In this document: positions 2,468 to 63,826 of the stretch, piece after piece
Position numbering within the stretch: position 1 is the stretch's first letter
Layout: each line of letters starts with the position of its first letter
Assembly (NCBI GenBank): GCA_963733055.1
Contig: CAVTBR010000002.1
Location: 1 to 64,000, forward strand
Origin: Candidatus Bathyarchaeota archaeon
GTDB lineage: Archaea > Thermoproteota > Bathyarchaeia > 40CM-2-53-6
Direction of reading: 5' to 3'
Length of the DNA: 64,000 nucleotides
Made by a program: the position numbers and the translations under genes
The notes under the pieces: model-generated
What the model saw: only the letters and a program-made list of their open reading frames with translations
Told to the model about the DNA's origin: nothing
The model's database searches: none

Positions 2468-2703
2468 GAGTATTCAATCGATCTTTAGAGAGGTCGCCGC
2501 ATTCGTGAAAAGTCGCTCCAAGTATTGGGTTTAGGATTCCGAACGCCGAAAGTGCTACGCCTAACCCGGTAACATTTTCCGTGTTGAGCGGAAATCTGTA
2601 ATTAATCTACTATGTTAATTTGCAACCTAGCTGTTTCAATTGTCTGTGACATCAATGCTCCCACCATCGACCCAGAGAATCTCCAAGGGACGTTGTATCT
2701 AGA

Positions 2704-3504
2704 ATGCCGAATGCCGGTGGTTATCAATGGCTCCCCTCAACCCTCCTCCTTCCTCTCAGGGTTTTCTTGGGTGCCACGTTCCTTTATGCAGGCGTTCAAC
2801 ACCTGACAGACCCTTCTTACTTCGACCCGTCCAGGCCGGGTTTCATTGGTCGTCTTGTAACTCAGTACGCAGTCGGTTCGCCTCTCCATGATTTTCTCCG
2901 GGGCGTCGTGCAACCGCACGCGGTCGGCTTCGGGTATCTTGTCGCAACTGGAGAGATTCTCATTGGCTTGGCAGTTCTTGTGGGGTTACTATTTCGCGTT
3001 GCTTGTATCGCGGGTCTAGCGCTTAACCTTACATTCTTTCTTTCGGCCACTTGGACTGTCTTCCCATTTTACTTCGGGTCGGACATAGTTTTCGCGGTGG
3101 GTTGGTTGACCTTACTCTTGACTGGGCCTCAGGCAAATATGAGTATAGATGGCGCGCTCTCGCGACGATTTAGCTCGTTGGGCTGGCTGTTATCTGGATC
3201 GTCTGCGATTCCGAGAGCGGAAACAACGCAACCTGAAAAAACCTCGGTGCCCATGGAGACTCTGCAGGCTCCGTCAAAGGCGGGCTTGTATCCTAAACAA
3301 GTTAGGGAAGTAAACAGCTCCTTTAACAGAATTAAGGAACAATTTCTGGGCAATGAGGAGACACAGTCGGTGCTTGAGATGCTCCGCGTTTTTGTGATCA
3401 GCCTAGGAGTTGATAGGAAAGATTCGGTCAAAGTGCTTGATGGGATCACGAATACTTTGAGAAGAGATGCATGGCAGCTGGATACAGAGGGAGGGTCTGA
3501 ATAA
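2704..3504 (+). CDS. doxD: DoxD/DoxX family (TQO small subunit-like) membrane protein, copy 1
   Basis: LLPLRVFLGATFLYAGVQHLTDP, GEILIGLAVLVGL and FFLSATW...YFGSD motifs typical of DoxX/DoxD; extra C-terminal soluble domain. Confidence 0.8.
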   Translation: MPNAGGYQWLPSTLLLPLRVFLGATFLYAGVQHLTDPSYFDPSRPGFIGRLVTQYAVGSPLHDFLRGVVQPHAVGFGYLVATGEILIGLAVLVGLLFRVACIAGLALNLTFFLSATWTVFPFYFGSDIVFAVGWLTLLLTGPQANMSIDGALSRRFSSLGWLLSGSSAIPRAETTQPEKTSVPMETLQAPSKAGLYPKQVREVNSSFNRIKEQFLGNEETQSVLEMLRVFVISLGVDRKDSVKVLDGITNTLRRDAWQLDTEGGSE

Positions 3505-4134
3505 TTGCCTGAGTCAGAGGAATTATACGAACGATTACGTAGTCAATGCGGTTTGACGCTTTCAAAGGATACCTTCGTTTCATTATATTCCGATAAGCCG
3601 AGCGTTCCTGTACCGATGACTCGCGCTGCTTTCCGACCGACTGGAGCTTTCATGAGTCATGAGCAGGCTAAACGGGTCAGCGTTCAGAGGGGTAGACGTA
3701 GTTTTCTGCGTAGCTTCATGGTGTTAGGGTTGGCGGGTGTGCTGGGTTTAATCTCGTGGAGCGCCTTATCGCAACCGCAGCCTCAAGCGCCTACCTATGT
3801 TTCAAATCCAGGCGCATCTGCCGGTCAGGTGCTTGCAACAGCGCAGAGTGTTCCCTCGGATTCATCGTTACTACTTAACGATCCGACATGGGGGCCTATG
3901 CTGTTGATTCATCTGGATAACGGGCATTTTATCGCCTACAGCGACGTTTGCACTCATGCGGGCTGCCAGGTGAATTTCAACCCATCCGACAAACTCATCG
4001 AATGCCCATGCCACGGAGCAGTCTATGACCCTTACCACGGTGCCCAGGTTCTGGCTGGACCAGCACCAAGCCCGCTAACGCAGATCCCGATCAGGTACGA
4101 TCAAGCTAGCGGAAACATATACCTACAATCGTAA
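3505..4134 (+). CDS. Rieske [2Fe-2S] protein with Tat-like anchor, copy 1
   Basis: RRSFLR plus TM helix; CTHAGC and CPCHG boxes; directly abuts doxD copy 1. Confidence 0.9.
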   Translation: MPESEELYERLRSQCGLTLSKDTFVSLYSDKPSVPVPMTRAAFRPTGAFMSHEQAKRVSVQRGRRSFLRSFMVLGLAGVLGLISWSALSQPQPQAPTYVSNPGASAGQVLATAQSVPSDSSLLLNDPTWGPMLLIHLDNGHFIAYSDVCTHAGCQVNFNPSDKLIECPCHGAVYDPYHGAQVLAGPAPSPLTQIPIRYDQASGNIYLQS

Positions 4135-4214
4135 AATCAAGTGTTCTCAGCAGCTATCGGGAGAAGAAACTACAAGTCAGGTCTTCTTTTGCGCTCTGCA
4201 ATGTTCCCCGACGA

Positions 4215-4925
4215 TCAACCGGTCAGGTAGATGTTGCCTGTTGACCCTTCATATTGTACTGGTACACTCTGAAGCGGGTATGGCGCTGGTCCACCTAAAA
4301 CTTGGGCGTTGTTGTTTGGATCGTATACCGCACCATGGCAAGGACAGACAATGTCCTTCATGGATGGGTCGTACTGAACTTGGCACCCTGCATGCGTGCA
4401 GATTGAGCTGTAAGCAACGAATTTTCCATTACCTAAGTGGATCAGAATTACGGGGCCATATGTTGAGTCGTTGAGAGTCAATGATTGGTCTACTGGAATG
4501 TTCGATGCGTTAGCTACCAACCTTGCCCCCTGTGACGCGGGATTCGTCGCGACGGTTTGGGGCAGGGTCTGGAGCTGAGTATTGGTTGGGAAATAGTTTA
4601 CCTGCTGGGCAGCAGTGTTAGGATTGTACGCTTGAGTGAGCGTTGGTTGGTTTAGAGCAGACATGATCTCATATAATGCTAATCCTGAGAACGAGAGCGC
4701 TGCAAGGCCTAGCATGGTTCGAAGGAAGTTTCTACGTTCTCGTTGGACACGAGATCGCTGTTGCGTTCGAACATCGACGTCGTGCCGAAATGATGCATGG
4801 GAAAGCAGTATGGGGAGTTTGGGTCGACCGTTCAGGCTTGAAACTATCACGTCATTTGGAACTCGCAACCCATAGACGGACACTAATCTCTTTGCAATTT
4901 GTTCGCTTTCCCCAACGTTTGTCAT
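4215..4925 (-). CDS. Rieske [2Fe-2S] protein with Tat-like anchor, copy 2
   Basis: RRNFLR plus TM helix; CTHAGC and CPCHG boxes; paralog of 3505-4134; 4-bp overlap with doxD copy 2. Confidence 0.9.
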   Translation of the reverse strand: MTNVGESEQIAKRLVSVYGLRVPNDVIVSSLNGRPKLPILLSHASFRHDVDVRTQQRSRVQRERRNFLRTMLGLAALSFSGLALYEIMSALNQPTLTQAYNPNTAAQQVNYFPTNTQLQTLPQTVATNPASQGARLVANASNIPVDQSLTLNDSTYGPVILIHLGNGKFVAYSSICTHAGCQVQYDPSMKDIVCPCHGAVYDPNNNAQVLGGPAPYPLQSVPVQYEGSTGNIYLTG

Positions 4926-5755
4926 TGTGTAAGAACATCTCCTAGTTTTGTCGTTGCTCCCTCGGTAGGATGCCGGGTGAGGATGCTCTGAAGAGCGGTT
5001 AGGATTCGTATGGCGTCGTTTCGATCGACGCCTAGGCTTATGACGAATGCTCGCACGAACTCAAGCATGGTCTGGGTCTCTCGGTGCAAAATGTATTGTC
5101 GCTTGATTCGGTCGAATGCATTGTTTATTTCACGCACCTGGTTCGGGTATAGGGTCGCCTTGCTCGGAATTGGAACGTGAACCTCAGGCGTTTCGGCCTT
5201 GATCGGTTTTACGGCATCATTCGTTTGAGGGCTTCCCCGATAGGTTTTGGGCAATAACCACCCCAAAGAACGATGACGCGTTGCCAAGGCGCTATCGATA
5301 CTGTACTTCAGTTGCGGCCCGGTTAACAGTAGGGTTAACCAGCACATGACGAAGACGATGTCCGAACCGAAGTAGAATGGAAACGCGTTCCATGTGGCAG
5401 ATAGATAGAACGTGAAGTTGAGTACTAGTCCAGCGAACGCTGCGATCCTGTATAGGAAACCGGTTAGGACCGCGATTCCTATCAGACACTCTCCGATTGC
5501 AACCGAGTATCCGAACGCAACAGCGTTTGGCTCAACTACACCGGTGAGGAATGCGTGAATCGGCGATCCGATTGAATACCCTACAACAAGTCTTCCGATG
5601 TACCCCGCCATGGAGGGGTTGAAGTAGGCAGGATCAGATAGGTGCTGTAATCCTGCGTAAAGGAACGTGAGACCCATGAATATTCGTAACGGCCAAAGCA
5701 GACTCGCAGGACGCATTGGGTTAGCTGAGATTTTGACAGGCCCCGTTGTGTCCAT
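4922..5755 (-). CDS. doxD: DoxD/DoxX family membrane protein, copy 2
   Basis: LWPLRIFMGLTFLYAGLQHLSDP; clear full-length paralog of 2704-3504. Confidence 0.8.
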   Translation of the reverse strand: MDTTGPVKISANPMRPASLLWPLRIFMGLTFLYAGLQHLSDPAYFNPSMAGYIGRLVVGYSIGSPIHAFLTGVVEPNAVAFGYSVAIGECLIGIAVLTGFLYRIAAFAGLVLNFTFYLSATWNAFPFYFGSDIVFVMCWLTLLLTGPQLKYSIDSALATRHRSLGWLLPKTYRGSPQTNDAVKPIKAETPEVHVPIPSKATLYPNQVREINNAFDRIKRQYILHRETQTMLEFVRAFVISLGVDRNDAIRILTALQSILTRHPTEGATTKLGDVLTQ

Positions 5756-5792
5756 CGAGATTTCACAGAACGAACCTCAACTGCAGGTTGAC

Positions 5793-5826
5793 ATTTAAGT
5801 GGACGCCACTTTCGGTGTACACCGAA
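5793..5826 (-). promoter_or_regulatory. Perfect 16-bp palindrome TTCGGTGTACACCGAA (5811-5826) plus TATA-like TTAAAT (5798-5793) upstream of doxD copy 2
   Basis: Read directly from the sequence; 12-bp spacing to the TATA-like box, as in the other two copies. Confidence 0.75.
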
Positions 5827-5846
5827 GATGAATCGGGTTCCGCACG

Positions 5847-6230
5847 CTACTCTTTGTCGTCAGGGAGTAATTGCCTCTCTAACGAATCGAGTTTCTCAAA
5901 TCTTTCTCCCCATCTCGAGACGAAATTTCGTTGCTTGATCCAGACACCCAGCGACCACAAGACCGCTACTAACGAGGCGAACAGAAGGAACCAATCTGCG
6001 TACTCGAAATCAAAACCCCTCTCATCATGAAAAGGGCGAAGGTTGAACGGAGCGGGGCCAATGTTCACGAAGAAGATAAGGAAGCGTGAAAGGAAGATTA
6101 ACAGTATAATCGAACCGATCAAGTTAACTTTGGCCTGAGTGCGAAAGCGATTGAACTCCGTCGAGGCCTCCTGCAAGAACCTATGAAGGGTCGCTATCGG
6201 GTATTCATCTTCCTTCTCGGACAAAGCCAT
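5847..6230 (-). CDS. Two-TM membrane protein of unknown function
   Basis: Two hydrophobic helices with charged termini; downstream of the wHTH gene on the same strand. Confidence 0.7.
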   Translation of the reverse strand: MALSEKEDEYPIATLHRFLQEASTEFNRFRTQAKVNLIGSIILLIFLSRFLIFFVNIGPAPFNLRPFHDERGFDFEYADWFLLFASLVAVLWSLGVWIKQRNFVSRWGERFEKLDSLERQLLPDDKE

Positions 6231-6290
6231 TTACCACCAAATTGGGTTTATGCACTTGAGTATAGGGCTAGTTCACCAGTGGTGTAGTCA

Positions 6291-6584
6291 CTAAAGAATT
6301 GAAGGTAGGATCTCCCTGAGTTTAAGGTAAACATTTCTTCCCTCGGTCGACAGCCGAATGCCTTCCTCCGACTCCTCAATGAAACTCTTACCTCTAAGGT
6401 AATCCAAGTACTTCTGAAAGTCGTCGTACGAGAGTTGAGTGGCATGGCGCCATAGTGAGGATTTAGAATGCGCACCGACGTTATAAAACAGGAATTCCAG
6501 AATCTCAAACCGTATCTGCACGGGCGATTTCCTGGCAGATCGCGTTGGCTTCACAGCAGCACTCATCGGCTTCGCCCCCTGCAC
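6291..6584 (-). CDS. Archaeal winged-helix transcriptional regulator (HTH_45-like)
   Basis: RKSPVQIRFEILE...LSYDDFQKYLDYL...LSTEGR pattern of small archaeal wHTH proteins. Confidence 0.8.
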   Translation of the reverse strand: MQGAKPMSAAVKPTRSARKSPVQIRFEILEFLFYNVGAHSKSSLWRHATQLSYDDFQKYLDYLRGKSFIEESEEGIRLSTEGRNVYLKLREILPSIL

Positions 6585-44644: not shown

Positions 44645-45648
44645 TTGAAGGTGGGCGTTAGGTTGCCAAATTCTGGTCCACTAGCCTCCGCAGAGGCAAT
44701 TCTGCGCGGTGCTGAACTCGCAGAGCAACTTGGCTACGACTCCGTGTGGGTTCACGACCACATCATCTGGGGCACTGAGCAGCATAGAGATCACCTGTCA
44801 TCAGGCTCCGCTGAGGCACTGAACTCATCGCAATTGCCAAACTTCTACGAATCACTTGCAACTTTAGCCACGATTGCGGGGCGGACTGATCGAGTGAAAC
44901 TAGGGGTCGCGGTAGTCATACTTCCGCTACGCAACCCTGTAGTCTTCGCGAAACAGACGTCGGTTATAGACGTACTCTCGGGTGGCAGACTGATGGTAGG
45001 AGTTGCACCCGGTGCGCCCAAGATTACTGAGAAAGAGTTCGAATCGATTGGGGTTGAGTACCATAAGCGAGGAAAAATCACGGACGACTACATTAGAGCA
45101 GTCAAGAATCTCTGGACCGAGCAGTTAGCAACGTACGAGGGTAGTTTCGTCTCGTTCAATAAAGTGCAGATGTTTCCTAAACCTCTCCAGAAACCACACC
45201 CCCCGATTCTAATCGCGGGCGGAGAACGAGGGCTGAGCGAGATCGCGATACAGCGAGTCGCTGAGCTAGGTAATGGATGGATCCCTGCGTATCTCACCGA
45301 GACTGAGCTTGAGCAAGGAACTAAACAGCTTGAGCGGAGGATGAAGGAGGTCGGGAGGGGGGATGAAAAGTTAATGGTTGGGCTTGAAATGTTTACGGGC
45401 ATCAGCCAATCAGAAGGCGAAGCCGAGAGGACCTACTCGGCTACGCTCATGAAAAACTTCAATTCTGCTGAGGAAGGGATGAAACGAAGCCTCGTAGGAT
45501 CGACTGGATCGATTGCGAAGAGACTCGACACGCGTACGAGAGAGTGGGACTGGATTTTGTTGAATTGAAGTTCATGTACTCCACCATTCAACAGTTCCAC
45601 GAGCTGATGACAAAATTTGCCAAAGATATACTTCCATCTTTCAAATAA
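44645..45648 (+). CDS. LLM-class (probably F420-dependent) oxidoreductase, 2-nt frameshift near 45530
   Basis: AE.LGYDSVWVHDH, LRNP, LSGGRL, PKPLQKPHPPI; removing AC at about 45530 gives a normal tail AYERVG...FAKDILPSFK*. Confidence 0.85.
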
Positions 45649-45680
45649 CGCAACTTAGCAAGATGCAAGAATGACAGTCC

Positions 45681-46250
45681 ATGGCGCGATTTCTAACCAG
45701 GGAACTTGGACGACGGACATGGCCTGACTTCGTGAGGGTTATGGAGAAGCACAATGGTGTGTGGGGTGGATGCTGGTGCGTCACCTTCCACTTCAAGCCC
45801 GGAGGGTCGATCCGAGGGGCTACGCCGCGCAGAGCATACAAGGAGAGGCTCGTTCGAGCGAACAAGTCCCACGCTGCCCTCGTCTATGACGGGGCGGATG
45901 TCGTTGGGTGGTGTCAGTTCGGGTCCCCTGGCGAGCTCCCGGGCCGAATGGGAGGGTTCCGCAAGTTGGGTGTGGCTCAGCCCGACTGGAGGATTACATG
46001 CTTTTTCGTCGACCGCAGCCGGAGAGGAGAGGGAGTAGCGGAGGCAGCGTTGGGGGGCGCTCTTCGAATGATCGCCGCCAGAGGAGGCGGGACGGTCGAC
46101 GGATATCCAATCGCAACCCGAGGGAAACCTTACTCGAGTTCATTCTTGTGGGGTGGAATTGAATCAATGTTCGCCGACGTCGGATTCCGCCAGCTTGGTC
46201 ATCTCGGCACAAGTAAGTTAGTAATGCGAAAGAAGGTTCGTGGCCGATGA
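45681..46250 (+). CDS. GNAT-family N-acetyltransferase
   Basis: GGCWC, VGWCQFG, ITCFFVD..RRG.GVA, GYP and GF motifs. Confidence 0.85.
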   Translation: MARFLTRELGRRTWPDFVRVMEKHNGVWGGCWCVTFHFKPGGSIRGATPRRAYKERLVRANKSHAALVYDGADVVGWCQFGSPGELPGRMGGFRKLGVAQPDWRITCFFVDRSRRGEGVAEAALGGALRMIAARGGGTVDGYPIATRGKPYSSSFLWGGIESMFADVGFRQLGHLGTSKLVMRKKVRGR

Positions 46251-46354
46251 TGTCATCCTCGCCCAACAAGTCTCCGTGTTAGGATAAGGGCTCAGATCTC
46301 TCTTGATCTTATGCGTTACTCGCGGTAACAGAGAGTAATAAGGTACCCATCTGA

Positions 46355-46406
46355 GGGTAACGGTACCTTCTCGTCAGCCCGAAAGGGCTGTTACTTTTCG
46401 TCTGCT
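46355..46406 (+). repeat. Left inverted repeat with internal hairpin CAGCCC-GAAA-GGGCTG
   Basis: GGGTAACGGTACCTTCTCGTCAGCCCGAAAGGGCTGTTACTTTTCGTCTGCT. Confidence 0.85.
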
Positions 46407-46534
46407 GACTCAGCCAATGTTAACGCATAGTCTACGGTTGACCGCTGATGTGGACTCCGCCATTACGTTTGGTTGTTGGTCTTTATGGAAGTTGCTTTAC
46501 GAATTAGGGCAACGATCCGTGGTTTACAACATTA

Positions 46535-46903
46535 TCATTGACGGTAACAAATGCAAGCACTTACATCATAATTCGGATGACTCATCACAACGCAAAAGCA
46601 ACTTCCGTTCCACGTTCCTCCGCAACCTACGCCTTCGAAACCTCCCATCTCTACGGGGCCTATCTCCATGAGAGGTTTCAGAGTTGCCGCTAATTCTTTA
46701 CTCATTGGTACCTCGGTCTGATCTCTCCCCTTCCTCCCCGTTCGGAAGACCCAACCGGAGGGGTTCTTACCCACCATGTCCAGAAAATCATTCACCGCCT
46801 TTGTGTAATGCGTGTTTGCCTCCGTCGTTTTATCGCGTAACCTGTCAAGTTCTGAGATGGAGTTCTTGAGTGCATCTATTTTCTCACGCTTCTCATCAGT
46901 CAT
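46535..46903 (-). CDS. Hypothetical cargo protein with Cys-rich C-terminus
   Basis: ATG start, helical N-terminus, tail GCGGTWNGSCFC...ACIC. Confidence 0.6.
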   Translation of the reverse strand: MTDEKREKIDALKNSISELDRLRDKTTEANTHYTKAVNDFLDMVGKNPSGWVFRTGRKGRDQTEVPMSKELAATLKPLMEIGPVEMGGFEGVGCGGTWNGSCFCVVMSHPNYDVSACICYRQ

Positions 46904-47046
46904 TTCAACATCGCCTGCGAGAAAACTGATCCAAGTAGGTTTAACCTTAGAAAAGGTATTTAACTTTTTACAGGTTCGGTAGCGCTTTTTCGTCCGCCAT
47001 TTTTGCTGTAGAGCGGTTTACTCTTGGATTTCAAGAGAAAAATAGC

Positions 47047-47286
47047 ATGCCCACCGTTTGCGTCCTCATTGTAGTTTTTCGTCTCGCATGGGTAGTGTTA
47101 AAGGTGCAAGGGGGTGATACCAAGAAAAACAGACCTCGATTGAAACCTAGACAAGTCTTGTACGCTTTAGTCGGTGTGGGCGCTTTTTATTTTGCCTACA
47201 CGAACTATACTTCTGGCAATGCTCAGGTTGCGGGTTTCCTTGCTCTGATAGGACTTGTTTCGTTCTATCTGGGGTTCAAGCGATGA
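47047..47286 (+). CDS. Small membrane cargo protein
   Basis: Hydrophobic helices; ATGA overlap with the next gene. Confidence 0.55.
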   Translation: MPTVCVLIVVFRLAWVVLKVQGGDTKKNRPRLKPRQVLYALVGVGAFYFAYTNYTSGNAQVAGFLALIGLVSFYLGFKR

Positions 47287-47720
47287 GCCACGTCAAACGT
47301 TATGCGCCAATTGGCATCATTCTGATTCTGGTATGTTACAACATCTATCTCGCAATTGTAAGCGATCCTGCCACGAGAGCAACCTACTTTACAACAATTG
47401 TTGTTCTAGCTATCTACCTCGCTGACCAGATCACGAAACTGCCTTCTTCAGTCGAATCGGGGAAAATGGACGAAGTGCCAACAGCGGTAGTCGATCTGGT
47501 TAGTGAAGCTCAAGAATGGGCCAAAGGGCGGTTGACTGGCATAGACATAAAACGATGGGGCCAACCTACAGTGAAAGATAATGGAAAGGGAGACATTGAG
47601 GTCTCAGGAACAATAGATCGCACTTATCCACAGGAAAGGTATACCTATCTTTACCACAAGAAAGACGGCCACATACAAACGGACTCGTATGTTGATTGGT
47701 TCAGCACATACTCGTTCTGA
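47283..47720 (+). CDS. Membrane cargo protein (2 TM plus soluble domain)
   Basis: Two N-terminal TM helices; convergent with the transposase gene. Confidence 0.65.
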   Translation: MSHVKRYAPIGIILILVCYNIYLAIVSDPATRATYFTTIVVLAIYLADQITKLPSSVESGKMDEVPTAVVDLVSEAQEWAKGRLTGIDIKRWGQPTVKDNGKGDIEVSGTIDRTYPQERYTYLYHKKDGHIQTDSYVDWFSTYSF

Positions 47721-47734
47721 TTTTCGTTGAGTCA

Positions 47735-48901
47735 TTAAATGGGATTGCTTCTTCGCGTATTCTGTTTCCGTGAAGCATTTTGAATTAACGTCAACCACTT
47801 ATTCTCTCCCTGAACCTCAATGCCCGCTAAGTCGGCTGGCGTTTTCCCGTTCAAACCCTCATGTGGTCGTATGAAGTTGTGGTAGATTTGCATCCCCGCT
47901 AAGATTGGAGTATCGGTTCTTTCAAGCGTCCTCATTACCCGTTCTCGGTCACGTAGTTCTCCGTTCATGCGCTCCATTTTGTTATTGTGAACTGTTCCAT
48001 CCATGCGAATGTCTCGAATATGCTCAGTTCGAGTTTCTAGTCGTTGTGTGTAGAACTCTTTCTCGTATGCCTCGTGAAAGTTTGGTGCGCCGTCAGTGAT
48101 GAGCGTCTTAGGATTCTTCTCTGCGATTTCCTTACCTTTCTGGAATAGCGGGCGTAGATCAGCCGTGAACTTTGTGTCGGCAACCTCTTGGGCTATCCAG
48201 AATCTGGTCTGATCGTCCATAAGAGCGTAGAGGTACTTCATGTTCCCTTTGACCTTGAGGAATAGTTCGTCAGCTCTCCACGTGTCACTGACTTGCGGTG
48301 TGATCTTGTCTAGGTACGTCTCCACCAGTTCGGTGTAGCGTTTAATCCAATAGAACACGGTCTTATGGCTAACTTGAACGCCAAGCAACCGCAGCGATCT
48401 AGCCGTATTCCGCAGGCTCTCCCCTGAGAAGTAGAGTTGCATGGCAGTTGTGATTCCTTGTGGGCTGTGCTTCATTCGCTCAAATCCAAAGTTCACCGTG
48501 AACCATTTTCGGCAAGCCTTGCAGAAGAATTTCTGAATGTCACCGTATTTGTTGTGACGTAACCCCTCTTTCTTGATATTCTCAGATTTACAATAGATAC
48601 AACCGTGAATCTCGGTTACCGGTTCAATAACTCTCGCTTGAACATGCTCCCTGATTTTTTGGGATAGTTCGACCGCCCACACATGCTTGCAGCGAAGAAT
48701 TTCGTGGAGTTCGCTCACGCGGTAGTGGTAGTCCAAGCAATTACAAATCCAAGAACCATTCTCGCGGCGAACCACATCATACATACCGTGTCCGTTCTGA
48801 GAAGCAACCTTGTAGGTTCGCTCGTCCATGCGCTGAATCTGGTTCGGCTTCTCAGCAATCATTCGCCCCTTTTCCTCACGGGAGAGAACGGTTCTTTGCA
48901 T
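47735..48901 (-). CDS. IS6-like DDE transposase/integrase with N-terminal SWIM finger and zinc ribbon
   Basis: SWIM CNC...CKH; CIYC...CKAC ribbon; HTH SLRNTAR...VSHKTV..WI; catalytic WRADE, LITDG, NNKMER; C-terminal YHNFIRPH..LNGKTP...KWLTLIQNAS. Confidence 0.9.
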   Translation of the reverse strand: MQRTVLSREEKGRMIAEKPNQIQRMDERTYKVASQNGHGMYDVVRRENGSWICNCLDYHYRVSELHEILRCKHVWAVELSQKIREHVQARVIEPVTEIHGCIYCKSENIKKEGLRHNKYGDIQKFFCKACRKWFTVNFGFERMKHSPQGITTAMQLYFSGESLRNTARSLRLLGVQVSHKTVFYWIKRYTELVETYLDKITPQVSDTWRADELFLKVKGNMKYLYALMDDQTRFWIAQEVADTKFTADLRPLFQKGKEIAEKNPKTLITDGAPNFHEAYEKEFYTQRLETRTEHIRDIRMDGTVHNNKMERMNGELRDRERVMRTLERTDTPILAGMQIYHNFIRPHEGLNGKTPADLAGIEVQGENKWLTLIQNASRKQNTRRSNPI

Positions 48902-48911
48902 CGCAAATCAC

Positions 48912-48967
48912 TACGACAATATTGTAATGCGCAAGACAAATATAGGCCTTACGACAATATTGTCGTA
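48912..48967. promoter_or_regulatory. Paired operator: perfect 18-bp palindrome TACGACAATATTGTCGTA (48950-48967) and partial copy TACGACAATATTGT (48912-48925)
   Basis: Located in the 74-bp gap between the divergent transposase and 64-aa genes. Confidence 0.7.
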
Positions 48968-48975
48968 GGTATCTG

Positions 48976-49170
48976 TTGGTTAGAAAAGAGGTACTTGGAA
49001 CATCCGAACGAGAAATACTCGAAGCCTACCTGAAAGGTGAACGACTCAAGAACTACACCGTACTATTACATCGCATACGTAAGATCGGATTGAAGGCAAT
49101 CATCCAAGGATGCCGACGCGACTTAGTTCTTTTGGAGAAACTTTTGCAAATTGAATCGGGAAGAGAATGA
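48976..49170 (+). CDS. Small basic helical protein divergent from the transposase (possible regulator)
   Basis: 64 aa, EREILEAYL.GE motif; shares the palindromic intergenic region. Function is inference. Confidence 0.6.
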   Translation: MVRKEVLGTSEREILEAYLKGERLKNYTVLLHRIRKIGLKAIIQGCRRDLVLLEKLLQIESGRE

Positions 49171-49198
49171 TTTCTCGGTCAGGTACGGGATAAGCGGC

Positions 49199-49939
49199 TC
49201 ACTTAGGTTGAAAGGCTTTCAGTGCTTGATGCGACGAAATGTCAAGCCTAAGTCTCATATGTGGTTGCTCAGGTAATTTCTCTCCAAAGAATTGATAATC
49301 GAGATCAATGCAATTTCTCTTGAGAGTATCTCGTAGCGTACTGAGCAACTCTGGGTTTTTAATGTCCGTATTTAGAAGGAGAGTTGCCTCGTCTTTTCCC
49401 TTGTAGGCAACCCAGATATTCATAACCTCACTCACGCCCTTAACCAGCGTTATGAGTTGAGGTGGACTTCTAAAGGAAACATTTCCCGTAGTTCCATCAA
49501 CTGTACTCTCTAGCTTCGACCAAGCGGGATGAAATTCAATTTCTCCCGTATCAATCCATAGTTTTGCACCCGCATTGGCTATTGTGCTATTGATCGCTGT
49601 AACTCTGAACTGTTGATAGAGAAAGTGCATCTTCCCTTTCGCAGGAAGTACTTGTGTCAGCGTGAATACATCAATTCCCATACTATGGGTGGTATTATCA
49701 TTCCAAACGGTTGACATGGGCTGCGAAAGTTCAACAAGAAGTGTCGGTGCTTTACCGATGAACGCCATGATTTCGGGTTTGAAGGTCCATAGAACTAAAC
49801 CACCAAGCCCCACAGTAGCTTCCGCGATCACTACTGTCCAGTATTCATTCCACAAAATATGTTCCTCGTAAGACACTACGCCCACGAAAACTACAACCGC
49901 TGCTATCGCGGATAGCCCTAGCCAAACTCTTCTGCGCAT
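49199..49939 (-). CDS. Membrane-anchored cargo protein of unknown function
   Basis: Two N-terminal TM helices followed by a beta-rich domain; lies inside the element. Confidence 0.7.
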   Translation of the reverse strand: MRRRVWLGLSAIAAVVVFVGVVSYEEHILWNEYWTVVIAEATVGLGGLVLWTFKPEIMAFIGKAPTLLVELSQPMSTVWNDNTTHSMGIDVFTLTQVLPAKGKMHFLYQQFRVTAINSTIANAGAKLWIDTGEIEFHPAWSKLESTVDGTTGNVSFRSPPQLITLVKGVSEVMNIWVAYKGKDEATLLLNTDIKNPELLSTLRDTLKRNCIDLDYQFFGEKLPEQPHMRLRLDISSHQALKAFQPK

Positions 49940-49994
49940 GAATTACTGTAAACCTCCAAGTAGCGTATTTAACAAGAGACCCTGACAGAACGCT

Positions 49995-50046
49995 AGCTGA
50001 CGAACGGTAACAGCCTGCTGCGGCTGACGAGAAGGTAACGTTACCC
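49995..50046 (-). repeat. Right inverted repeat with internal hairpin CAGCC-N6-GGCTG
   Basis: Reverse complement GGGTAACGTTACCTTCTCGTCAGCCGCAGCAGGCTGTTACCGTTCGTCAGCT. Confidence 0.85.
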
Positions 50047-50079
50047 ATCTGAGGGTAACGCGTCGTTGTCGTTTGGTCG

Positions 50080-50322
50080 CTAGGGCTGTTTACTTTCGTT
50101 TGGTGGTTTTCTTCGCAAAACCATTACTGACAAGATGGCCGCTATCAACAGTAGCAAAAAGCTGCTGCCTCCGGCAATTCCAGTAATTGTTTCGTAAGGT
50201 TGAGGGTACACCGCGGAGGGTATACCGAGCGAGTTTCTAACCGACACTCCCACGGAGACGAGTACTACGACGAGAAAGCACATACCGAGGCATATTGCCG
50301 CTGTGACCCGTTCTGTGTCCAA
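50080..50322 (-). CDS. Small two-TM protein (cargo of an adjacent element remnant)
   Basis: Two hydrophobic helices; starts 2 bp after the stop codon of a transposase stub. Confidence 0.6.
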   Translation of the reverse strand: MDTERVTAAICLGMCFLVVVLVSVGVSVRNSLGIPSAVYPQPYETITGIAGGSSFLLLLIAAILSVMVLRRKPPNESKQP

Positions 50323-50323
50323 T

Positions 50324-50525
50324 TTAGTTCGTTGGAGGCTTTCTGCTGGCGTTCTGTATTAAGGTCATCCACTTGTCCGTACCCTTAACCTCTATTCCCG
50401 CGACCTCTGATGGAGTCTTACCCTCTAAGGCTTCGTGTGGTCGAATATAGTTGTGGAAGATTTGCATATCTGACTGAATCGACGTATCCGATTTCTCTCA
50501 GGGTGCACATTGCGCGTTCCCGATC
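50324..50525 (-). pseudogene. 3'-end remnant of the IS6-like transposase
   Basis: Manual translation DRERAMCTL/EKSDTSIQSDMQIFHNYIRPHEALEGKTPSEVAGIEVKGTDKWMTLIQNASRK matches the C-terminus of 47735-48901. Confidence 0.9.
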
Positions 50526-55618: not shown

Positions 55619-57052
55619 TTGTATAAGTTATTCATTAACGGAGAAAACGTGGACGCCGGCAACGCAGACTCCTACGAAATCCGCAACCCAGCAAATTCCG
55701 AGCTCGTCGATACGGTTGCGAAGGGGAACGCCAGCGACGCTAAGAAAGCCATCGACGCCGCGCAAGACGCATACGAAAAGTGGTCAGAAGCAGCACCCAC
55801 GCAAGCAACCGGGGTCCTCAGCAAGGCAGCACAGTTAGTTAGAGCGAAGGAACAGGAACTCGCGACTCTCCTAACAAAGGAACAAGGCAAGACCTTACCT
55901 GAATCCCTTGGAGAGATTAGGTTCTTCGCGAAAACCCTTGAATACTATTCTGGAGCGAAGATAACTGGCTCGTACATTACACTGACCGACAAAGTATCAG
56001 CCGAAATCGTGAAAGAACCAGTAGGGGTTGTCGGCGGCATCGTCCCATGGAATAACCCTGTCATGTTGATGGGAGCCAAGGTGGTATCGTCAATCAAATC
56101 GGGTGATGCAATAGTAATCAAACCCGCCAGCACTACTCCCCTCACGACCATCAGGTGTGCGCAGATTCTACTCGAGGCAGGAGTACCCAAAGGTGTGTTC
56201 AACGTCGTCCCAGGACCCGGAGGAATCGTTGGAGAGGAAATTCTTCGAAACCCGAAGGTAAGGAAAGTATCCTTCACAGGCGAGAGCGAGACGGGGAAAC
56301 ATGTGATGGAGGTAGCGGCTCGTGACTTGAAGAGGGTCACGTTAGAACTGGGTGGAAGCAACCCCGTAATTGTGGCGGATGATGCTGACATTGAGGCGGC
56401 TGTCGACAACACCCTGTTCGGCCGCTTCCGCAACTGCGGGCAAGGATGCATGTGCATCAAGCGCGCGTACGTGTTCGAGAAGATCGCGGACCAGTTCACC
56501 AAACAACTGGTCGAGAAGGTTAACGGGATTAAGGTTGGTAACGGGCTTGTTCAGGGCGTGAGCATGGGCCCCATACACTCCGCGTCCCAGCGGGAAGCGT
56601 TCGAAGCACAAGTGAAAGACGGAATCAGTAAAGGGGCTAAGATTCTCACAGGAGGCAAACGGCCAGCGGGTTCCGAGTTTGACAAAGGCTTCTTCTACCT
56701 ACCAACTCTGCTCTAGAACGCCGATCCAACCTCGAAGGTTCTTACGGAGGAAGTGTTCGGACCTGCCCTCCCGATTGCTCGCGTCAAGGATATGGATGAG
56801 GCGGTGAGGCTTGGTAATGATTCGATCTATGGTTTAGGCGCGCACATTTGGACGAGGGACATCCAGAAGGCTCTCAAGGCGTCTAAGAAATTGAAAGCGG
56901 GCACGATACTCGTGAACACCGCATACGGTGCGGGTGGCTGGGAGATCGAGGTCCCTATGGGAGGCTTCAAACAGAGCGGCATCGGCCGCGAATACGGAAT
57001 CGAAGGCATGGGTCAATACCAAGAAACAAAAACAATCGTTTATGGAACCTAA
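55619..57052 (+). CDS. Aldehyde dehydrogenase interrupted by an in-frame TAG at 56714-56716
   Basis: PWN, FTGE, LELGG, NCGQGC; reading continues in frame PTLL*NADPTSKVLTEEVFGP...PMGGFKQSGIGRE. Confidence 0.85.
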
Positions 57053-61305: not shown

Positions 61306-61470
61306 CTCGAGAAAGCCGCCACTCCGATTCTTTCACGTATGCACATTCTCTATAATTACATCGGCCGCATCTGGCCTCAGAAGAAGGACACCCGCAGAAG
61401 CGGCAGGAATCAAGTTTCAGGGCCACAACAAGTGGTTGCCTCTGAATCAGAACGCCAACGCAAAGAAAGG
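61306..61470 (+). pseudogene. 3'-end remnant of the IS6-like transposase
   Basis: Manual translation with two indels: LEKAATPILSRMHILYNYI/RPHLASE/RTPAEAAGIKFQGHNKWLPLNQNA. Confidence 0.85.
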
Positions 61471-61567
61471 GTTTGAGGAACAGCGTTGTTCCGACCTAAC
61501 CGCTGTTACGGATTTCTAGTGAACTCTTATTAGGATTAGAAACCGTTGGTTGCACGTGGGCTAATTC

Positions 61568-62371
61568 ATGGGTCGCGGCCCAGTTGGGGTCATCTTAGTT
61601 GTATTCGTGTTCGTGTCTCTTCTTCTCTATCAAGCTCATCCCGTTCACGCCTCAGGTTTCGTTCAGGAGAAGGAGGGTACCTCATTTACGTTCGGTGTTT
61701 CTGTGCCTGTAATGATTTCTTTCTCATCGTCTGTTACTAAGGGAGATGTGGTGGTTGTGGCTCTTGAATGGGATAACAGTCGTCCTCTGCTTTCAGTTAG
61801 TGATTCGTTAGGTTCCGCCTTTGCTTCCACCTCGGAAGCTCACAATACTGCGCTTCGCCATTCTACTCAAGTCTATTATGCGACACTTACTTCTGGCGGG
61901 TCGGATACGGTGACGGTGACTGAGGGAACAGGTCTGCTTCAGTATAATGACATATTCATCTTTGAGGTTTCAGGGGTGATGACGGCGGGAGCCGCATCAG
62001 GTCAAGGTCAGGATTCTTCTGGCACTAGTTTTGCGTTTGCCACGAGTCCAGTCGCGTTCCAGAGCGGAGCGTTTCTGGTTGGAGTGGTCACGAGCGGGTG
62101 TACTTGCAGTATTGTGAATGGACCGAGTTTCACTTTGATTACTGCTGGTCAGGGTGGAGCAGTGGAGTATGCGGACCCCGTTTCTTCACCCACTACATTC
62201 CCAATGACAACTACCATTGATAATGGAGATTGGGTGGAAAGCGGGTTAGCTCTTCAACCAGCACCAGCACCACCGATTCCAGAATATCCGTTCGGCCTCG
62301 CGATGCTAGCAATCCTAATGATAATCATGTACGGGCTAATCAAACGCACAACCGCAAAGAAGCCCAACTAG
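61568..62371 (+). CDS. Surface protein with PEF-CTERM-like sorting signal
   Basis: Signal peptide, S/T/G-rich beta domain, C-terminal IPEYPFG, TM helix and basic tail. Confidence 0.8.
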   Translation: MGRGPVGVILVVFVFVSLLLYQAHPVHASGFVQEKEGTSFTFGVSVPVMISFSSSVTKGDVVVVALEWDNSRPLLSVSDSLGSAFASTSEAHNTALRHSTQVYYATLTSGGSDTVTVTEGTGLLQYNDIFIFEVSGVMTAGAASGQGQDSSGTSFAFATSPVAFQSGAFLVGVVTSGCTCSIVNGPSFTLITAGQGGAVEYADPVSSPTTFPMTTTIDNGDWVESGLALQPAPAPPIPEYPFGLAMLAILMIIMYGLIKRTTAKKPN

Positions 62372-62413
62372 ATCGCATCGACCGAGAGTAACGCCCGATT
62401 TCCTTTTTCAAAT

Positions 62414-62560
62414 ATGCAAATCTTCCACAACTACGTACGACTACACCAAGCATTAAACGGTAAAAGCCCGGCTGAGGTCGTGGGAAACGGGATTCGAGGT
62501 GAGAATGAATGGTTGACTCTGATTCAGAACGCCAGCAAAAGGCGTGAAGAGAAAGCATAA
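62414..62560 (+). pseudogene. 3'-end remnant of the IS6-like transposase
   Basis: MQIFHNYVRLHQALNGKSPAEVVGNGIRGENEWLTLIQNASKRREEKA*. Confidence 0.9.
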
Positions 62561-63688: not shown

Positions 63689-63730
63689 ACTCTAAGAAAG
63701 ATAACGTTACTTCCTACTTCTACTTCTAAT

Positions 63731-63826
63731 TCACCGAGTGAAGCTGCGGGTATCAAAGTTGAGGGAGACAACAACTGGCTTACCTTGATTCAGAATGCAA
63801 GTCGAAAAGACGGAAATAGCAACTAG
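63731..63826 (+). pseudogene. 3'-end remnant of the IS6-like transposase
   Basis: SPSEAAGIKVEGDNNWLTLIQNASRKDGNSN*. Confidence 0.9.

Follow-up and report, generated by a model that had tools for sequence, protein, structure and literature searches.

Classical members of the IS6 family of insertion sequences (IS) measure 0.7-0.9 kb, possess one transposase gene between repeats of about 14 bp and duplicate 8 bp of their target (PMC7986276), and the consensus of IS6/IS26 tips shows G at positions 1, 2 and 7 (PMC6807381). In the accessible part of the review the sole passenger-carrying IS6 member named is ISDsp3, and miniature inverted-repeat transposable elements (MITEs) are mentioned (PMC7986276). 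Archaeal "IS6" elements are just distantly related to IS26 according to Harmer and Hall (PMC6807381). Here, we analyze E1, a cargo-carrying element in a stretch of 64,000 nucleotides from Candidatus Bathyarchaeota archaeon (contig CAVTBR010000002.1, positions 1 to 64,000), in the following called the window. A preliminary description of the window had already set E1 apart from the small, short-ended and passenger-free classical IS6 elements, in agreement with the review (PMC7986276).

Some transposons are known to seek the ends of resident copies. Models of targeted integration by IS26 let a donor end attack the end or flank of a resident IS within one transpososome, and this was likened to the end targeting of IS3 and IS30 (PMC7986276). 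For its targeted reaction IS26 depends on identity between the two ends that react; no duplication arises, and passenger DNA comes to lie between the ISs (PMC7986276, PMC7885326). IS30 has a dual target choice between ordinary sites and ends, and its targeting of inverted repeats creates a new end-to-end junction; the junctions described join left and right inverted repeat (IRL-IRR) only and are highly unstable (PMC9333248). In the preliminary description two explanations of the E1 locus were offered, namely a DDE element with site-specific insertion at copies of its own ends, or an element that a host recombinase mobilises through dif-like sites. Xer/dif sites comprise two recombinase-binding arms around a spacer of 6-8 bp, at which a tyrosine recombinase performs a conservative exchange without duplication. 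We consider it probable that E1 is an IS6-like transposon whose insertion produced an ordinary duplication of 8 bp, and that its family preferentially targets the 8-bp flank of resident ends, by which arrays are built.

The junctions of E1 and the 8-bp duplication

The source genome (G000) comprises 2.88 Mb in three contigs, two of which (C2 and C3) are named here, the window being C2:1-64000. The names that databases give to close homologues place it in Bathyarchaeia. Counts at the genus level refer to a comparison set of 23 genomes of the genus. The repeat finder returned inverted repeats at 46355-46406 and 49995-50046 with 83% identity over 52 nt (43/52), the same figure as reported before. 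Also as described, both junctions contain one string in the same orientation, the 18-mer TACCCATCTGAGGGTAAC, which starts at 46344 and 50042 and occurs exactly twice in the genome, its runners-up carrying three mismatches. In direct orientation the 64 nt from 50042 are 75% identical to the 64 nt from 46344.

Among 51 E1-type ends (see below) the base preceding GGTAACG is A in 20, G in 13, C in 11 and T in 7 cases. Since this base varies, the tip is GGTAACG and the duplicated flank has 8 bp; an alternative tip GGGTAAC was ruled out on the same ground. In place of the 6-bp spacer formerly regarded as the core there is thus an 8-bp duplication, CATCTGAG, which has the size known for the IS6 family. 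Two further elements of G000, the array neighbours A and B, are bounded by the 8-bp duplication TTACGTAA, and a transposase-less copy of 587 bp has a perfect one, CCAGTATG, at an unrelated target without arms. Copies in relatives show the 8-bp duplications ATCCCGAG, TAAGAAAG and CAGGCGCT, again at unrelated targets without arms, and also CTTTCGGC. Among 12 end pairs listed from metagenome loci five have perfect 8-bp pairs, one of them (TTTTCTCG) armless at an unrelated target. Copies of this kind, with unrelated duplications and without arms (CCAGTATG to TTTTCTCG), were what the preliminary description had named as the mark of ordinary transposition.

Of the two outer arms that had been taken for copies of the element tip, only the right one is such a copy, namely the tip of the neighbouring relic E2. 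The left arm, GGTACC, is variable flank DNA. In the orthologous left flank (GGTAACAGA..GTAATAA, then 6 nt, then the 8-mer) the six nucleotides read ggtaat in G019:C115, ggtaac in G014:C11 and aataag in G013:C30. Scanning of the left flank (46230-46346) with an end profile gave zero matches, and the idea that this flank is a decayed end was dropped in view of this result and of the plain flank 6-mer in the sister genomes. Because GGTACC is self-complementary it appears tip-like in either orientation. The reconstructed empty site, formerly described as a palindrome, therefore has just one genuine arm, and the palindromic look arises because the ends of E1 and E2 face each other across the duplicated 8-mer. 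The "recombination core" is a by-product of the docking of E1 beside a relic.

End-to-end junctions at 8 bp

A search of the genome with the 34-nt ends of E1 itself, allowing up to 9 substitutions, matched E1 alone, and an end profile (nhmmer) was required to detect other ends. With this profile 21 ends were found in G000 at E<=0.01. The tip GGTAACG is present at 17 of them, the remaining four differing in one base, and nearly all ends in relatives carry it as well. Four junctions with a spacer of 8 bp account for eight of the 21 ends (Table 1), and GTTACC-N8-GGTAAC occurs three times in G000, with 0.13 occurrences expected per spacing. Throughout the genus the pattern CGTTACC-N(0-24)-GGTAACG was found at 34 places in 13 of the 23 genomes. 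The spacing is 8 bp at 31 of these places, 7 bp at two and 1 bp at one, and a control with the reversed pattern in the 23 genomes gave 9 places.

A search with the E1 end sequence, as proposed in the preliminary description, was run on public metagenome contigs and species-representative genomes and yielded the 51 E1-type ends (from metagenomes and one genome). An opposing tip is abutted at exactly 8 bp by 18 of these ends (15 of 38 distinct flanks) and at spacings of 0-7 or 9-12 by none; tip matches at spacings of 13 (two) and 19 (one) probably reflect the internal palindrome of the tip. The end profile confirms 13 of the 15 abutted flanks. Six of the 23 non-abutted distinct flanks carry element sequence in the available outside flank (<=2.5 kb). 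Among these six, locus L101 is abutted at 8 bp by a tip of the GGTTCTG type, and another is an insertion inside a transposase gene. The remaining 17 flanks, several of them short, are without element sequence.

The family thus shows a base-pair-precise excess of 8-bp junctions, with several independent events among them. By this comparative evidence the two features of end targeting are present, i.e. insertion beside an end of the own kind and a spacer as long as the duplication. From the former proposal of a DDE element inserting at copies of its own ends a strong preference can be retained (31/34 and 18/51 at 8 bp, together with orthologous sites hit independently), though no obligate rule.

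Orthologous sites occupied by different elements

The E1 locus lies between a flavin-oxidoreductase-like gene and an aldehyde:ferredoxin-oxidoreductase-like (AOR-like) gene, both named by eye from their translations. Its arrangement in G000 is CATCTGAG-[E1, 3.7 kb]-CATCTGAG-[E2 relic]. The same site in G013:C30 reads CAATTGAG-[1222-bp element with two ORFs and without transposase]-CAATTGAG-[relic], while in G019 CAACTGAG is found left of an element end (C115) and again between an element and a relic (C168), the C168 element having a transposase 71% identical to that of E1. These 8-mers are identical within each genome and differ between genomes at one or two positions, a pattern that fits duplications after the split of the lineages and not one old insertion. 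An unoccupied state of the site (flank, 8-mer, E2) was not found among the 23 genomes; G013 and G019 hold other elements and G014 differs.

A second site is located upstream of an Hsp20-like gene (C3:749799-750407), where in 13 of the 23 genomes an 8-mer and then an element come after the flank ATATAAATATTG. The 8-mer is TTACGTAA in G000, G013, G014 and G017, TTACGACA in G004, TTACGCCA in G021 and TTACGTCA in G019, and it recurs at the array junctions of the same genome with the exception of G021, whose third junction is TTACACCA. The first element of the array belongs to end subfamilies that differ by genome. In G012 and G005 the locus is almost empty, with about 525 bp against 9.9 kb in G000, and beside the 8-mer of this near-empty site there is an end-like relic, clear in G012 and weak in G005. 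The region upstream of the Hsp20-like gene (C3:750420-750478, orthologues L057-L072) contains conserved GTTACC-N4-GTAAC palindromes beside a TATA-like box, and the array 8-mer together with the first tip likewise reads GTTAC-N5-GTAAC. A native operator-like site that mimics the tip may have attracted the first insertion at this locus.

Proposed mode of array growth

According to the reading that we prefer, E1 moved by ordinary DDE transposition and duplicated the 8 bp immediately outside the end of relic E2. New copies, heterologous ones included, would prefer as target the 8 bp next to an end, whether that of a resident element or of a relic. Because every such insertion regenerates the 8-mer, the same site would be reusable and end-to-end arrays could grow. 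When exactly the 8-bp flank of a resident end is duplicated, one of the staggered cuts has to fall on the phosphodiester between the terminal nucleotide and the flank, and this terminal phosphodiester is the very bond that the transposase cleaves at its own ends. Transposase sitting on the resident tip may draw that end into the transpososome of the incoming element. There one incoming 3'-OH would attack the scissile phosphate of the resident end and the other would attack 8 bp away on the opposite strand. The opening step of this scheme corresponds to that proposed for targeted integration by IS26 and for the end targeting of IS30 and IS911. If the partners are not identical, branch migration would be unable to proceed through the element, and the outcome would be duplicative insertion.

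For a broader version of this proposal we see about even chances. Ends, even those of dead and distantly related copies, would then serve as heritable landing pads, one 8-mer would be hit repeatedly, arrays of unrelated cargo would accumulate at fixed sites with modules reshuffled between neighbours, and an IS26-type synapse would be resolved as duplicative insertion.

Several points weigh against the proposed preference or restrict it. As many as 23 of the 38 distinct E1-type flanks belong to the non-abutted class, so targeting can be no more than a preference, and survivorship could inflate the share of insertions beside old elements, since those elsewhere may be purged. The two sides of the G019 site lie on different contigs (C115, C168), and G014 has a different 8-mer at the same flank. 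The relics right of the 8-mer differ among G000, G013 and G019 (different end subfamilies), so the history of the site includes replacements or deletions. The 5/6 likeness of the left arm GGTACC to the tip in G000 is here ascribed to chance and self-complementarity. On the protein side, the E1 transposase scores 105 bits with the NCBIfam IS6 model, below its curated equivalog cut-off of 125. Neither a transposition event nor an empty site or circle junction came to light, the public reads being uninformative (in one run 0.11 of the sampled words were present, and from three runs four contigs of 151-187 nt with zero joints were obtained). The mechanistic end preference is what we infer from these comparisons, and the geometry of strand transfer is inference throughout.

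Alternative explanations

The best surviving alternative, in our view still an unlikely one, is that insertion is random and without end preference, dead elements being safe havens in and beside which insertions survive whereas others are purged. Selection alone could yield the element islands that are seen in many genomes, and the 17 of 38 distinct E1-type ends without element sequence in the available outside flank indicate that non-targeted insertion does occur. Selection cannot, however, yield base-pair precision such as 31 of 34 places at 8 bp, or 18 of 51 ends at 8 bp with none at 0-7 and 9-12. Furthermore, the bodies of full-length neighbours, 2.8-3.7 kb long and equally harmless, hold few insertions (one in a transposase gene; four others near but not abutting).

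Somewhat less probable again is that the facing ends are reactive junctions of a copy-out/paste-in pathway via a circle or dimer, as in IS30, IS3 and IS256 and unlike the transposition of IS26. The spacer equals the duplication in length, as in the junctions of IS30 and IS911 (PMC9333248, PMC7986276), and 8-mers in reverse complement (G019:C18, L101) imply that junction regions rearrange. But IS30-type junctions are described as unstable (PMC9333248), while those of the E1 family connect different elements and have been retained in many genomes. This alternative concerns the chemistry alone and is compatible with end targeting.

Tandem duplication of an element with its 8-bp flank, by unequal crossing-over or IS26-like amplification and followed by divergence in place, appears improbable. 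It would account for the fact that the junctions within an array all have one 8-mer in common. In a maximum-likelihood tree, computed from 23 full-length transposases after removal of two duplicate rows, two adjacent copies of G019:C18 are on the one hand sisters, and the G017 array (L050, G017:C4) contains two identical transposase copies, mutually inverted, around a third element; some local copying therefore occurs. On the other hand A and B are not sister copies, B grouping with two copies from another G019 locus (support 100/99), and the tree places E1 in another group than the G019 element that occupies the same site. Moreover, the pairs E1/E2 and A/B have the core alone in common, their cargo and end subfamilies being different, the 8-mers are the same within but different between genomes, and the AOR-like gene shows 85-88% DNA identity between genomes compared to about 74-77% for the transposase genes at the same site. 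As far as the sequences tell, the arrays were built by insertion and not copied in place.

The orientation at the junctions is mostly head-to-tail (E1/E2, A/B/C), with one tail-to-tail case at G017:C4:841442-841463. Reverse-complement 8-mers bracket the elements L051 (G019:C18) 2524-6303 (TGTAAGAA/TTCTTACA) and L101 4564-7552 (GGCGCATT/AATGCGCC); together with the inverted G017 copies they are signatures of inversion within arrays.

Integration and excision of the segment by a host tyrosine recombinase at a dif/Xer-like site, the second possibility of the preliminary description, has next to no credit left despite the near-palindromic look of both window junctions, as the spacer is the duplicated 8-bp target, the arms are element tips or flank, copies with 8-bp duplications occur at unrelated sites, the core 18-mer is found nowhere else in the genome and no tyrosine recombinase gene is present within E1 according to the ORF list and Pfam.

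Structure and genes of E1

E1 is an intact, cargo-carrying IS6-like DDE transposon of a family that is found across Bathyarchaeia (Table 1). The family is characterized by ends of about 52-65 nt that start with GGTAACG and contain two subfamily-specific subterminal repeats, and by a core consisting of a transposase of 380-390 amino acids (zinc motif, zinc ribbon, IS6-type helix-turn-helix (HTH) plus DDE) and a divergent 64-aa ORF. The passengers vary and are located between the core and each end. As subterminal repeats there are two TCGTCAGC copies per E1 end, CGGTTGA in elements A and B and CGTTTGG in E2. The additional end-like sequence GTTAACGCATAGTCTACGGTTGAC immediately internal to one E1 end was matched with E=0.66 genome-wide and E=0.04 in a 22-kb subset (nhmmer); judged by its letters, an older element that was captured may have left this remnant.

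Table 1. Coordinates of E1, its junctions and the adjoining relic E2 (positions of the window unless a contig is given; a dot means no strand)
Feature	Position	Strand	Remarks
E1, complete element	46356-50045		3690 bp; 6 ORFs
E1 end, transposase 3' side	46356..46413	+	tip GGTAACG; TCGTCAGC/TCGTCTGC repeats at positions 16, 43
E1 end, transposase 5' side	49995..50045	-	tip GGTAACG; TCGTCAGC at positions 16, 43
Second end-like sequence GTTAACGCATAGTCTACGGTTGAC, weak	46419..46445	+	immediately internal to E1 end
Left outer "arm" GGTACC	46342..46347	.	flank DNA, no element tip
Target duplication CATCTGAG, left copy	46348..46355	.	identical to 50046-50053
Target duplication CATCTGAG, right copy	50046..50053	.	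doubles as 8-bp E1/E2 spacer
Passenger ORF, 122 aa	46535..46903	-	without known family
Passenger ORF, 79 aa	47047..47286	+	without known family
Passenger ORF, 145 aa	47283..47720	+	without known family
Transposase, 388 aa	47735..48901	-	CxC..CxH zinc motif aa 53-73; CxxC..CxxC zinc ribbon aa 101-130; IS6-type HTH+DDE core aa 140-345
Divergent promoter region	48904..48975	.	two TACGACAATATTGT copies flanking A+T-rich (TATA-like) stretch
64-aa core ORF, predicted three-helix protein	48976..49170	+	divergent from transposase gene
Passenger ORF, 246 aa	49199..49939	-	without known family; N-terminus hydrophobic by eye
E2, truncated relic relative of E1	50054-c.50500		starts directly right of 8-mer
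E2 end, GGTAACGCGTCGTTGTCGTTTGG subfamily (right outer "arm")	50054..50116	+	end profile E=1.2e-7
80-aa ORF within relic E2	50080..50322	-	
E2 transposase C-terminal relic	50324..50500	-	aa 326-383, 64% identical, one TGA
8-bp junctions in G000	C2:50045/50054; C3:19559/19566; C3:753323/753330; C3:756117/756124		

The transposase was recognized by Pfam DDE_Tnp_IS240 (PF13610) with 55.2 bits (cut-off 27; E=1.1e-14), and its best NCBIfam match is transpos_IS6 (NF033587; 3.5e-30), which covers the profile completely (1-202/202) and corresponds to aa 140-345. NCBIfam furthermore indicates an IS1/IS1595-type zinc domain at aa 101-135. Twelve residues are invariant across 25 aligned transposase copies, i.e. 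C53/C55/C71/H73, C101/C104/C127/C130 and D211/D270/E310/R317. The designation as SWIM-finger DDE transposase holds for its DDE part, for which Pfam scores above the cut-off. The SWIM domain of Pfam was undetected in the E1 copy even at E<=10, though the CxC...CxH pattern, which we take to be the SWIM signature, belongs to the invariant residues and some homologues with about 70% identity have a precomputed PF04434 match.

The small divergent gene of the preliminary description is present but is not cargo. By tblastn the 64-aa ORF adjoins transposase copies at many loci although those transposases are just 57-77% identical, and an alignment of 12 copies contains 18 invariant columns; since it recurs in this way beside diverged transposases it has to be regarded as a core gene. 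The protein model is a three-helix bundle (pLDDT 88), and a fold search of the PDB with it gave nothing significant (best E=4.4). In A (C3:752256-752345, CTACGATA..) and B (C3:754911-755000, TGCAATA.TGCTGCA) the counterparts of the divergent promoter region have their own repeat pairs around an A+T-rich stretch. These repeat pairs between the transposase and 64-aa genes look like element-specific operators, as far as their sequence can indicate.

The four unrelated ORFs noted beside the transposase (122, 79, 145 and 246 aa) indeed gave zero matches in Pfam and NCBIfam (PADLOC and PHROGs being outside the scope), and no paralogues were found in G000 or in the loci compared from relatives. For the 246-aa ORF a search of 5.8 billion proteins returned a single homologue besides itself. 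The layout may be that of a transporter IS (an IS with passenger genes), with four putative passenger ORFs of no known family inside the repeats that differ among E1, A and B, these three elements of G000 having core and ends alone in common.

Neighbouring region

The 3' stretch of the E1 transposase gene at 47775-47893 (119 nt) recurs at 50349-50467, in the transposase relic of E2, which adjoins the AOR-like gene. An orthologous transposase relic is present in G013 and G019. The E2 end and a near-identical end of the CGTTTGG subfamily at C2:64626(-), beyond the window, face each other across 14.5 kb of metabolic genes. Their interpretation as one 14.5-kb unit was considered but is not adopted: the flanking 8-mers differ (CATCTGAG and CTAAGTAG), for which reason the pair is no simple insertion, and the intervening genes are syntenic in G013 and G019. 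Three further C-terminal transposase relics were detected at 61367-61471, 62405-62551 and 63725-63817 (+).

To the left of E1 an ORF for a GNAT-type acetyltransferase (45681-46250, +; Pfam Acetyltransf_1 with 21.5 bits, barely over the cut-off) is situated between the conserved flank and the upstream gene. It has 62% G+C compared to about 50% in the genome and is absent from the orthologous interval of G013; it is possibly foreign DNA. In the interval 44645-45663 the flavin-oxidoreductase-like ORF stops at 45568 after 307 aa while DNA homology to the 335-aa gene of G013 reaches 45663, and this sequence relation suggests a frameshift near the 3' end of the gene in G000. Two consecutive ORFs of 365 and 99 aa (55619-57052, +), by eye two parts of one aldehyde dehydrogenase, may reflect either a split gene or a frameshift. 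L047 (G013:C30; 8789-9589, -) and the window (61568-62371, +) each contain, in different relic elements, a passenger ORF of about 266 aa; the two look similar by eye, with an N-terminus resembling a signal sequence and, at the C-terminus, a hydrophobic tail "PIPEYPFGL...". Some of the cargo may therefore belong to a shared surface-protein family.

Distribution and significance

Homologues of the E1 transposase are abundant (5138 matches at E<=0.001 among 7768 scored candidates). At E<=1e-40 the transposase occurs in 15 of 41 close relatives including G000, the other 14 all being of the same genus. Sampling across the class found it in 29 of 251 genomes from 20 of 96 genera, often at full length and with 55-64% identity. 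A description of Bathyarchaeia IS6-like elements or of 8-bp end-to-end arrays of the IS6 family was not found in the literature, a provisional result since most subscription journals, ISfinder/TnPedia and supplements were not covered; the accessible part of PMC13343696 makes no mention of Bathyarchaeia, SWIM, passenger or tandem.

What had been supposed to be an undescribed recombination system in the window is thus reduced to an IS6-like transposon that duplicated 8 bp of its target in the ordinary way. What is left stands at the level of the family, a large and apparently uncharacterised archaeal IS6-like group with an enlarged transposase, a second conserved gene, variable cargo and docking at 8 bp. 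If this habit is mechanistic, it would offer a natural system for IS6/IS26-type synapsis with resident ends, the step behind the IS26-driven clustering of resistance genes in bacteria, and would explain the growth of transposon islands at fixed archaeal sites. The GGTAACG tips, together with the spacer of 8 bp and the conserved 64-aa ORF, can serve as markers when Bathyarchaeia assemblies are annotated.

Comparison with known systems

With IS6/IS26 (IS26, IS257 and the archaeal ISs assigned to IS6) the family has in common the DDE_Tnp_IS240 core with HTH and its invariant D211, D270, E310 and R317, tips that start with GG and have G at position 7 (some copies in relatives begin with GGTTCTG, as does the IS26 consensus) and the 8-bp duplication, which was found for E1, A, B, the 587-bp copy and relatives. 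Transposase-less miniature copies such as that of 587 bp have a parallel in the MITEs mentioned for IS6 (PMC7986276). On the movement by cointegrates alone (copy-in or targeted conservative) that belongs to the IS6/IS26 picture, the reverse-complement 8-mers around some elements give indirect hints. A compact single-gene IS with short repeats, however, E1 is not, with its 3690 bp, six ORFs and 52-nt repeats. Members of its family are 2.8-3.7 kb long (classical IS6: 0.7-0.9 kb) and have ends of 50-65 nt that include subterminal repeats (classical IS6: about 14 nt), a transposase with about 140 extra N-terminal residues and two zinc motifs, a second conserved gene (64 aa) and passenger ORFs on both sides.

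The likeness to Xer/dif elements is superficial and consists of inverted arms around a short spacer. E1 lacks a tyrosine recombinase, its 8-bp spacer is duplicated, one arm is a transposon tip and copies are found at unrelated sites, so that it does not represent a site of this type.

Targeted conservative cointegration by IS26 resembles the docking of the E1 family insofar as a resident copy attracts an incoming one. In contrast to IS26, the E1 family joins heterologous partners, duplicates the 8-mer and leaves a distance of 8 bp between the ends; a description of such a duplicative end-to-end outcome between non-identical elements was not found in the accessible parts of the IS6-family literature, which makes this difference a provisional one. 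With IS30 and IS911 the family has in common the insertion beside an end of the own kind, a spacer as long as the duplication and the dual target choice. Those elements have transposases of other families and a spacer of 2-3 bp instead of 8 bp. Unlike IS30, the E1 family does not keep strictly to IRL-IRR junctions, as the tail-to-tail junction in G017:C4 demonstrates, and its junctions persist across species. By analogy the docking habit would extend the end targeting known from IS30, IS911 and IS26 to this archaeal family.

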